Shown piece after piece: positions 61,485 through 63,174 of a stretch of 64,000 bases of DNA. A program made the translations under genes and the position numbers. The DNA is from Octopus sinensis (taxonomy: Eukaryota): NCBI RefSeq assembly GCF_006345805.1, contig NW_021832224.1, positions 62,001 through 126,000 of the forward strand, written 5' to 3'. The notes under the pieces are model-generated. The model saw nothing but the letters and a program-made list of their open reading frames with translations, searched no databases and had not been told where the DNA came from. Position 1 is the stretch's first letter; every line of letters begins with the position of its first letter.

Positions 61485-63174
61485 ATGGTTGTCCCCACTC
61501 CTTCAATAAACAGGATACATCCAACAAAGTCAAAGAAATAAGAGATATTACAAGAATGGAGAGAATAGGAGCCCACTCCCACATCCGTGGACTCGGCATA
61601 AATGACTCCCTCGAACCCCGTCAGCGCTCACAAGGCCTAGTCGGACAAAAGGTGGCCAGACACGCCGTCGGCATTGTCCTCGAAATGATCAAAGAAGGCA
61701 AAATAGCAGGAAGAGCCATTCTACTGGCTGGACAACCGGGCACTGGGAAGACAGCAATCGCCATGGCCTTGGCACAGACAATAGGCGTGGACACCCCCTT
61801 CACCGTCATGTCAGGCAGTGAGGTCTTCTCCCTGGAAATGGGAAAGACCGAGGCACTCACTCAGGCCTTCAGGAAGTCGATAGGAGTGAGGATCAAGTAG
61901 TCCTCAGTCTATATAAAAGGGATGAGACGGAGATTATTGAGGGAGAAGTCGTCGAATTGCAGATCGACAGGCCGGCCAATAATACGGTTGTTGGACTGTG
62001 GTATTCCTAGGGTGCCAAGGTGGGGAAATTGATTATAAAAACGACGGAAATGGAGACTATTTATGACTTGGGGCAGAAAATGATTGATTCGATTGTTAAG
62101 GAGAAGATTGGTGCTGGGTTGGTCGTGGGGGATTATTTATAGGGATGTTATAACGATTGATAAGGCGACTGGGAAGATCACCAAGTTGGGCAGGTCTTTC
62201 AGTAGGTCACGTGATTATGACGCTATGGCTGAACAGGTTGTGCACCACAAGAATATATTTTGAATAAATATATTTAAAAATAATATTTATTAATATTAAA
62301 TGCTAAATTATTATTATTTATTAGACCCGGTTTGTGCAATGTCCAGAAGGCGAGTTGCAGAAACGGAAGGAGGTAGTCCACACAGTCAGTCTACACGAGA
62401 TTGACGTCATCAACAGCCGAACTCAGGGATTTCTGGCTTTGTTCGCAGGCACGTGCTTTCCATTACCCACCCAGGGGACACTGGAGAGATCAAGTCGGAG
62501 ATTCGTGAAGAAATCAACATGAAAGTAGCAGAATGGCGAGAAGAAAACAAGGCCGAGATTGTCCCAGGAGTGCTCTTCATAGACGAAGTGCACATGCTCG
62601 ACATTGAGTGCTTTTCCTTCATCAACCGAGCCATCGAGACCGACATGGCTCCCGTGGTCATTATGGCCACAAATCGCGGAATTACCAAGTTTTGAGTATT
62701 TGGGTTGAGTGTTGAGAATCCGTGGCACTGATTATGAAAGTCCTCACGGAATGCCGTTGGATTTGCTCGACAGAGTTCTCATTATTCCAACGGAGTCGTA
62801 CAACACTGATGAACTGAGAGCAATTCTCGAAATTCGGTGATTTCTGTTTTTTGAGGTGTCAAGATGTGAGGAGGAAGATGTCGAGCTGGAAAATGATGCC
62901 CTCGTCCTGCTGACACAAATCGCGTATGAGACATCCCTGAGATATGCCATTCAGTTGATTAGCACTGCTAGTGTTGTTTGTATGAGGAGAAAAGTGGGTT
63001 TTCTGTGTTTATGTTCAGGGGACTGTGTGCACTGTGCAGGATATTAAGAAGGTTTATTCGCTTTTTATTGATGAACAACGGTCGTCGGAATTTTTGGACG
63101 AGTACAGGGACTTGTTTATGTTTCACCAAAACGGGCACACTAACAGAGATGTGACTATGGATGAAATGGCCTGA
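61485..63174 (+). CDS. RUVBL2: RuvB-like helicase 2 (reptin)
   Basis: [89 protein letters not shown]; 9 introns (eight mini-introns under 30 nt, one of 88 nt). Confidence 0.98.

Follow-up and report, generated by a model that had tools for sequence, protein, structure and literature searches.

We analyzed a 64,000-nucleotide window of the Octopus sinensis assembly GCF_006345805.1 (contig NW_021832224.1, positions 62,001 to 126,000 of the forward strand), whose contig is likely DNA of a dicyemid, a tiny cephalopod parasite, co-assembled with that of its host. Near the right end of the window lies RUVBL2, a nine-intron gene with an open frame of 465 amino acids that matches Lingula RUVBL2 at 76% identity over 453 amino acids without gaps. 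An AT-rich island precedes the gene and a second one forms its fifth intron (Table 1). Other genes in the window include SPT16, SEC24, PAF1, and CRNKL1, names backed by Pfam, and ORC1, ATR, and ESRP, which like iRhom, RAN, RUVBL1, and EXOSC7 elsewhere in our data were named by reading their translations; Pfam yielded no more than an AAA domain in ORC1, a PI3/4-kinase domain in ATR, and a single weak RRM in ESRP. An earlier, sequence-only reading of the window had described a strand skew that runs from C/A-rich to G/T-rich along these genes and resets at short AT islands, even inside RUVBL2. Here we examine that skew in RUVBL2 and across the genes of related contigs.

Skew was expressed as centered keto skew (negative where A/C-rich, positive where G/T-rich) at near-neutral sites, comprising fourfold sites, twofold sites, and introns. 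RUVBL2 consists of four zones, A/C-rich, G/T-rich, A/C-rich, and G/T-rich, each with |z| ≥ 2.8, and the second pair follows the 88-nt intron 5; the double gradient with a reset at this intron was thus confirmed. Fourfold keto skew in 120-bp bins was -0.82, -0.82, -0.44, -0.33, +0.64, +0.69, and +0.50 (n=4) before the island and -0.29, -0.27, -0.56, +0.08, -0.14, +0.54, and +1.0 after it. Twofold sites agreed independently, C/(C+T) being 5/15 ahead of the island and 17/23 past it. The skew jump at intron 5 ranked second among 1003 mid-gene introns, and the first G/T-rich zone rose above the plateau common to gene bodies (about +0.11 to +0.15). Two spliced-looking runs, X3 and X4, have contigs that skip the intron (62237-62324, GT..AG), indicating that a single transcript crosses the island; they show the intron-5 joint, and their gap counts fit the other RUVBL2 introns. 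Positions in the TIP49 profile are likewise continuous over intron 5 (175-204, then 204-243).

For a wider survey we used 1.64 Mb of sequence from 14 parasite contigs, which were found via RUVBL1 and proteasome genes, with a repeat mask made from these sequences alone. A self-trained gene finder gave about 560 predictions, of which 247 were kept (300 or more coding bases, two or more introns, few repeats, and a score cut). Known errors of the gene models include a mispredicted start in RUVBL2, an in-frame intron overlooked in PAF1, two or more fusions, and the retention of some retrotransposon frames. An AT island was counted as lying before a start if a 40-nt window of at least 90% AT occurred within 150 bp upstream, and 215 genes of at least 800 bp were tested in this way. 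The islands that had been listed for the window are AT-rich, at 86-93% AT.

A positive gradient, from negative skew at the 5′ end to positive skew at the 3′ end, was present in 97 of 100 genes with an upstream AT island (mean 3′-minus-5′ contrast, +0.40) versus 72 of 115 genes without one (contrast, +0.06), which upholds the claim that the skew is tied to AT islands. Keto skew in the 5′, middle, and 3′ parts was -0.23, +0.11, and +0.23 with an island (37 genes) and -0.06, -0.05, and +0.02 without (46 genes). The pattern thus depends on an upstream island belonging to the gene itself. ORC1, SPT16, PAF1, SEC24, CRNKL1, and RUVBL2 all showed the negative-to-positive course ascribed to them, and the two PAF1 introns quoted as its example exist, at 46421 and 46991. 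The gradient was seen alike at introns, fourfold sites, and twofold sites; since introns show it too, codon choice is not its cause. From start to body, twofold C/(C+T) fell from 0.52 to 0.33-0.38 and G/(A+G) rose from 0.30 to 0.50-0.59 (44 genes). The skew is therefore transition-type: close to the start C outweighs T and A outweighs G, and in the body both relations are reversed. Gradients at fourfold and intron sites correlated with those at twofold sites (rho 0.58), indicating that both transition pairs shift jointly, and G was depleted in the A/C zone ahead of every next base (ratios, 0.40-0.69), most strongly before C rather than T.

The course of the skew was not the linear sawtooth between islands that had been described. 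The A/C zone was maximal 75-250 bp from the island edge, a G/T plateau followed after ~500 bp, and the zero crossing lay near 500 bp in all four gene-length classes, with little scaling with gene length. No nucleosome-scale periodicity was seen in the skew. The strongest gradients belonged mostly to conserved housekeeping genes; Pfam matches were found in 25 of the 40 strongest-gradient genes versus 14 of 50 flat genes (p 0.001), a comparison that serves as a proxy for scaling with germline expression and a difference that bad models could cause. An intronless 647-amino-acid frame that is convergent with PAF1 (window 47638-49581, minus strand) also shows an A/C-to-G/T gradient on its own strand.

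The skew follows gene direction and is limited to the transcribed sides of islands. In front of the 48 strongest promoter islands keto skew was -0.41 (the value on which these islands were selected). No mirror skew was found behind them, either in unique non-coding DNA (-0.01 to +0.04, with 2000-3900 bases per bin) or in tandem 3′ ends (3 genes), while the 11 divergent genes behind promoter islands carry an A/C zone of their own. Non-coding DNA directly past stop codons did show skew (+0.13). The sequence-only reading had held that the skew is not tied to transcription starts; in these data it points solely the way transcription runs. Islands recur at intervals of ~1.2-1.4 kb, and 1089 of 1311 lie neither at a predicted start nor within a predicted gene. 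The idea that every AT island is a switch point was rejected, as 510 islands pooled from two contigs gave a GC skew of only about +0.03 / -0.04. Intronic islands reset the skew weakly on average, and the pooled set hardly flips it.

A short G/T-rich element (GTGGT, TGGTG, or GTTGT) was observed between AT island and ATG, as in RUVBL2. Among 155 promoter-position islands, GTGGT occurred 30 times on the firing side versus once on the back. For the G/T-rich motif class as a whole, which was derived from this promoter set, the counts were 44 of 177 on firing sides, 9 of 155 on back sides, and 135 of 2172 on the flanks of other islands. The element could be an initiator-type or a trans-splice signal. 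One copy stands at the edge of the RUVBL2 intron-5 island and faces, antisense, into the 5′ half of the gene.

We next considered AT-rich introns as a class. At 17 AT-rich predicted introns the mean jump in skew was -0.13, compared with +0.06 at 486 short control introns (p 0.0006; the controls are not mutually independent), and 3 of the 17 had individually strong jumps (z < -2.5). Removal of two probable fusions left 15 introns with a jump of -0.11 (p 0.005), and further removal of RUVBL2 and ESRP left 13 with a jump of -0.07 (p 0.025). The nine introns of at most 115 nt within this reduced set gave -0.04 (p 0.11), and an earlier variant with fewer site classes gave a p of 0.14 for 16 introns. 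A general intronic reset, being weak on average, was rejected. A restart at an AT intron can nevertheless occur, as had been claimed: it was seen in RUVBL2, in the ESRP-like gene, and in an iRhom-like gene on the same contig as the window. Of the two further resets that had been named, the one in ESRP was found in modest form, and the ATR patch, which lies within the 5′ zone of its gene, showed no sign change. The skew moves on both sides of the RUVBL2 island, whereas in the ESRP-like and iRhom-like genes the downstream side alone turns A/C-rich. These downstream-only resets and the weak mean indicate that an AT intron by itself does not suffice; among such introns, that of RUVBL2 is the extreme. 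Pfam continuity across the island was confirmed for RUVBL2 alone, most exons flanking AT introns being without a match. Nearly pure AT introns are a distinct class beside the 22-29 nt majority; several, of 51-112 nt, showed little or no reset, one of them a jump of opposite sign.

We lean toward promoter-linked, strand-biased mutation as the source of the island-linked skew, and consider it somewhat probable that the skew arose in this way and that the RUVBL2 intron-5 island is a hidden internal promoter. AT islands before genes, to judge by their position and motif, would be nucleosome-free promoters; the island upstream of RUVBL2 is likely one. The skew would be the long-term footprint of mutation biased by strand and following the direction of transcription. 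In the gene body, the non-template strand would take a surplus of C>T and A>G changes, which is the classical pattern. In the first ~500 bp, we infer that the template strand takes deamination-like C>T and A>G changes instead, for instance through exposure or poor repair near the promoters of genes active in the germline. Where an AT intron also recruits polymerase, a further A/C zone would arise downstream of it (RUVBL2, ESRP, and the iRhom-like gene), and antisense firing of the same intron could give the G/T zone upstream of it in RUVBL2, where the intron-5 island would act as an internal promoter firing both ways.

Both halves of such a pattern have relatives in the literature (here and below, published systems are compared on the available parts of the papers cited). 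Plants and fungi have a C>G skew at their transcription starts (Fujimori et al. 2005, PMC555766), and the non-template strand of human genes is G/T-rich (PMC10030826). The present skew shares with the plant and fungal one the excess of sense-strand C over G by the start. The latter is stronger in highly expressed genes, where ours is stronger in conserved housekeeping genes, and by the account in PMC555766 it is missing from animals and has no AT component, whereas here an animal shows it with A over T added. It also differs in extending ~500 bp into exons and introns, in being transition-type, and in its possible restart at an intron. As in animal transcription asymmetry (PMC10030826, PMC13712754), the non-template gene body is G/T-rich at introns and silent sites; unlike it, the sign is reversed over the first ~500 bp, and the silent sites of single genes attain values of ±0.5 or more. 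A C-rich zone past starts, reported from plants and fungi but not from animals, is thus found in an animal at large amplitude, in both transition pairs, and visibly in single genes. If it is mutational, the skew records germline start sites, so that hidden internal or antisense promoters such as that proposed in RUVBL2 intron 5 would be predictable from sequence, and it suggests that some promoter-proximal process damages the template strand, the opposite of the textbook case.

Several observations weigh against this account. R-loops, the known form of promoter-proximal exposure, expose the coding strand (PMC13712754) and would give the opposite sign, which leaves the template-strand step without an established cause. 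Where an island adjoins a 3′ end, a weak G/T excess is added (+0.10 to +0.17 over 300 bp; 21 genes that lack an island of their own), and 3′ ends beside a neighbor's promoter have one of +0.18 to +0.24 (3 genes); such an excess fits a site-anchored process. The tandem test rests on 3-10 genes, and repeat-rich intergenic DNA may be too young to show skew. The promoter-edge motif occurs at just 25% of firing sides and was found in the set that defined it. The gene models are self-trained and contain errors, so that flat genes may in part be bad models. The account also leaves uncovered a set of mid-gene switches that have no island, described below.

Selection on RNA offers a different route to a directional skew. 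It would strip G and U from the first ~500 nt and favor both later, guarding transcripts against premature termination, R-loops, or, in a genome whose introns measure 25 nt, cryptic splice sites. Directionality and fixed length follow directly from it, introns would be affected too, and the skew is strongest in conserved genes. However, the loss of G before every next base singles out no GU motif, a single chemical cause is simpler for the joint shift of both transition pairs, and the second A/C zone, 840 nt into RUVBL2, is unaccounted for unless transcripts begin there; we give selection a slim chance. Meiotic breaks would supply the chemistry: Spo11 would cut within AT islands, 5′-to-3′ resection would bare ~500 nt of the strand whose 3′ end faces the island, and deamination of that strand (C>T, A>G) would make the left side G/T-rich and the right side A/C-rich. 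Polarity and transition type would match this scheme, a Spo11-type TP6A_N domain scores above cut-off at C8459:150865-150978 (a domain match only), and the island-free switches in GC-rich genes have the same G-then-C polarity. Mouse hotspots, described by Smagulova et al. in 2011, are said to turn from purine-rich to pyrimidine-rich at a GC-rich center. That flip, as reported, resembles the island-free switches, whereas the island-linked skew is keto/amino and one-sided. Symmetry around the island, which breaks predict, was not found, and the A/C zone has no GC peak near the island, so breaks remain doubtful, with a chance that is slim at best.

Replication origins, as dense and fixed sites, were one of the causes suggested by the sequence-only reading, along with chromatin boundaries. 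Promoter-type islands would then be efficient origins, and the A/C zone a leading-strand or initiation footprint of yeast polarity laid over ordinary transcription skew. In yeast the leading strand is C/A-rich, and origins are where the skew changes over, with a jump of about 8% (PMC3590768); these AT-rich sites have G/T on the left and C/A on the right, as here. Human constitutive origins leave strand-inverting footprints of ~1 kb (PMC9645720), also similar to the zones described here (for human footprints and S-jumps see also PMC11874978 and PMC7506530). The RUVBL2 island acts on both sides, and the weak G/T excess in 3′ ends adjoining islands points the same way. But a bidirectional origin predicts a mirror image, which the 48 strongest islands lack and only the RUVBL2 intron provides; closely spaced islands leave the pooled skew nearly flat; the zone keeps its near-fixed ~500 bp in four length classes without scaling to the next-island distance; and its amplitude is several-fold above the yeast jump. 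Yeast and human origins are two-sided and far sparser, whereas the skew here is one-sided and follows transcription, and most islands are inert. Origins are thus an unlikely explanation. Another suggestion was that genes exist as separate gene-sized molecules, circular or linear, with ends or junctions at AT islands. Dicyemids are reported to undergo chromatin elimination and selective amplification and to carry extrachromosomal circles (PMC6543705, citing Noto 2003 and Awata 2006), and in the island-free class the switch is symmetric and near mid-gene. Yet the window lies inside a gap-free contig of 484,969 bp, a contig from a DNA run (60531-63294) is unbroken across both RUVBL2 islands, and no circle junction fell at an island among the 15 listed of 44 joints, in contigs that drop rare forms. 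The circles of PMC6543705 are, in its available text, of mitochondrial or non-coding DNA, the length of the A/C zone is fixed, and somatic units would leave no heritable skew, all of which makes this suggestion very improbable.

The island-free switches differ in kind from the gene-start gradient. An internal G-to-C switch (z < -3.5) was found in 20 of 222 genes, against 1.3 expected from within-gene shuffles, and 26 of 29 switches with z < -3.2 had no AT island nearby. Fourfold G fell from 0.50 to 0.17 and C rose from 0.15 to 0.48 across the switches (sites selected on this measure), while twofold C/T was unchanged (p 1.0), twofold G/A shifted little (p 0.02), and codon positions 1 and 2 flipped too. 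The swap of G and C at fourfold sites with flat twofold C/T marks a G/C transversion or purine-to-pyrimidine pattern, unlike that at gene starts. Switches were enriched in GC-rich genes: 10 of 19 genes with GC content at fourfold sites (GC4) above 0.65 had one, versus 2 of 83 with GC4 below 0.45, and 24 newly fetched genes again showed the link (rho -0.41, p 0.04). At the switches, GC4 was 0.67-0.69 in the center, 0.53-0.59 on the left, and 0.61-0.65 on the right, a rough likeness to the symmetric flip with a GC peak expected of a break hotspot. They were concentrated in the first 30 kb of contig C8999, where successive genes on either strand are G-rich and then C-rich, with upward jumps in the spacers. 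Among 11 hand-picked genes, switch position rose with gene length (rho 0.74), partly by construction. A near-identical pair of alpha-tubulin genes in inverted orientation, ~36 kb apart (L120:8524-9675 and C10215 near 125760), was also noted, and both carry a mid-gene G-to-C switch.

The switches found no support as a general feature of satellite-capped contig ends, since 0 of 21 satellite-adjacent genes on seven other contigs reached z < -3.5, compared with 4 of 6 at the ends of C8999, C9002, and C12597 (C8459 yielded no gene); proximity to the terminal satellite was no predictor of them. A second species or a chimeric contig as the source of the inverted class was not favored, given the shared repeats and terminal satellite and the occurrence of both polarities within 4 kb. 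There is a small but appreciable chance that the skew switches stand at fixed sites, spaced below the scale of a gene, where strands are exposed in the dicyemid germline, in some cases at AT islands. GC-rich regions would then hold one such site in the middle of nearly every gene, and each gene would resemble a miniature bacterial chromosome, G-rich in its first half and C-rich in its second on either strand, as if forks started in every spacer and met mid-gene or breaks formed mid-gene. If this were true, origins, termini, or meiotic break sites of an animal would be readable from sequence at ~50-bp resolution. The mid-gene switches extend to positions that alter amino acids, and they could reveal where replication or recombination takes place in a lineage known to rearrange its genome.

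Table 1. Coordinates of the features described in the text. Positions without a prefix refer to the window; paired values are 5′/3′ centered keto skew.
Feature	Position (strand)	Skew or remark
RUVBL2 gene	61485..63174 (+)	465 amino acids, 9 introns, open frame, homologue match
RUVBL2 introns	61488-61513, 61897-61919, 61987-62010, 62118-62142, 62237-62324, 62449-62474, 62689-62716, 62837-62863, 62994-63018
AT island upstream of RUVBL2	61381..61472 (+)	88% AT; short G/T-rich element, then ATG
First A/C-rich zone	61485..61860 (+)	-0.47, z -4.9
First G/T-rich zone	61861..62236 (+)	+0.41, z 4.8
Intron 5, AT island	62237..62324 (+)	88 nt; core 62250-62324 93% AT; spliced
Promoter-edge motif TTGTGGTG	62243..62250 (-)	at island edge, antisense into 5′ half of RUVBL2
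Second A/C-rich zone, C-rich intron 6 included	62325..62685 (+)	-0.26, z -2.8
Second G/T-rich zone	62686..63174 (+)	+0.31, z 4.2
G/T-rich element, examples	61462-61484, 44199-44225, 46091-46100
ORC1-like AAA gene with upstream island	4914..6642 (+)	-0.32/+0.17
SPT16	17041..20637 (+)	-0.22/+0.26
CRNKL1 with upstream island	32255..34537 (-)	-0.28/+0.26, gradient on minus strand
PAF1 with upstream island	46013..47561 (+)	-0.54/+0.30
SEC24 with upstream island	54416..57942 (+)	-0.55/+0.37; A/C-rich for ~500 bp, G/T-rich for the remainder
AT-rich intron of ESRP-like gene	35845..35990 (+)	modest downstream reset, +0.06 to -0.28
AT patch in ATR-like gene	7245..7290 (+)	no sign change, -0.16 ahead, -0.25 past
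iRhom-like gene, pure AT intron of ~50 nt by reading	L013:3539-3645 (-)	downstream reset, +0.07 to -0.30
AT introns with little or no reset	L138:5535-5588, L068:1747-1797, L017:8210-8280, L142:489-600
Cluster of island-free switches	L132-L134 and L179 (C8999:1-38000)	sharp mid-gene switch
Island-free switches, examples	L133:198-923, L133:1201-4660, L132:5335-6294	RAN-like, PLC, Pumilio exon
Parasite contigs	C8695, C9061, C7512, C10215, C8999, C2502, C9002, C9073, C8907, C9888, C7755, C8459, C12597, C8223	C8695 contains the window
169-bp satellite	L003:1-1921, L179:1-860, L182:3370-9159, L193:8814-10000
Mobile-element-like frames	28855-31890 (-), 23184-24965, 51630-53803, 25438-25905

The parasite contigs are unplaced, 130-850 kb long, and sit inside a 2.72-Gb cephalopod assembly. 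The median intron of the predicted parasite genes is 25 nt. Introns this small are reported among animals solely for myxobolid myxozoans and Dicyema in the available part of PMC13644364, and the Dicyema median is 27 nt (PMC6543705). The contigs resemble dicyemid genomes (PMC6736024, PMC6543705, PMC2222250, PMC13644364) in their ~25-nt introns, reduced splice signals, 36% GC, repeat richness, Pax6-type paired box, and cephalopod host. The assembly contains a conserved Pax6 with 98% identity to squid Pax6 and a second, divergent Pax6-type paired box on C9061, a contig that has the same tiny introns as the window and repeats in common with the window's contig. Its 18S genes include ones of ~2.6 kb and one of 1,667 nt. 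No dicyemid name occurred among 120 listed matches of the RUVBL2 and tubulin homologue searches, and we found no description of nuclear gene skew in dicyemids in the main texts of the open-access literature; the word skew was absent from the three dicyemid genome papers checked for it. A practical point is that these unplaced contigs of a host assembly are likely parasite DNA.

A 169-bp tandem satellite, a possible subtelomeric or centromeric repeat, is found at the ends of many parasite contigs or close by, for the most part oriented alike with respect to the end. No TTAGGG array was found at an end among 20 contig ends sampled. On C8695 and C8999, silent-site GC declines away from the satellite-capped ends. 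Between the genes of the window lie retrotransposon-like frames and a DNA-transposase-like frame, named by reading their translations; the retrotransposon-like set includes a 1011-amino-acid endonuclease/reverse-transcriptase frame and fragments.

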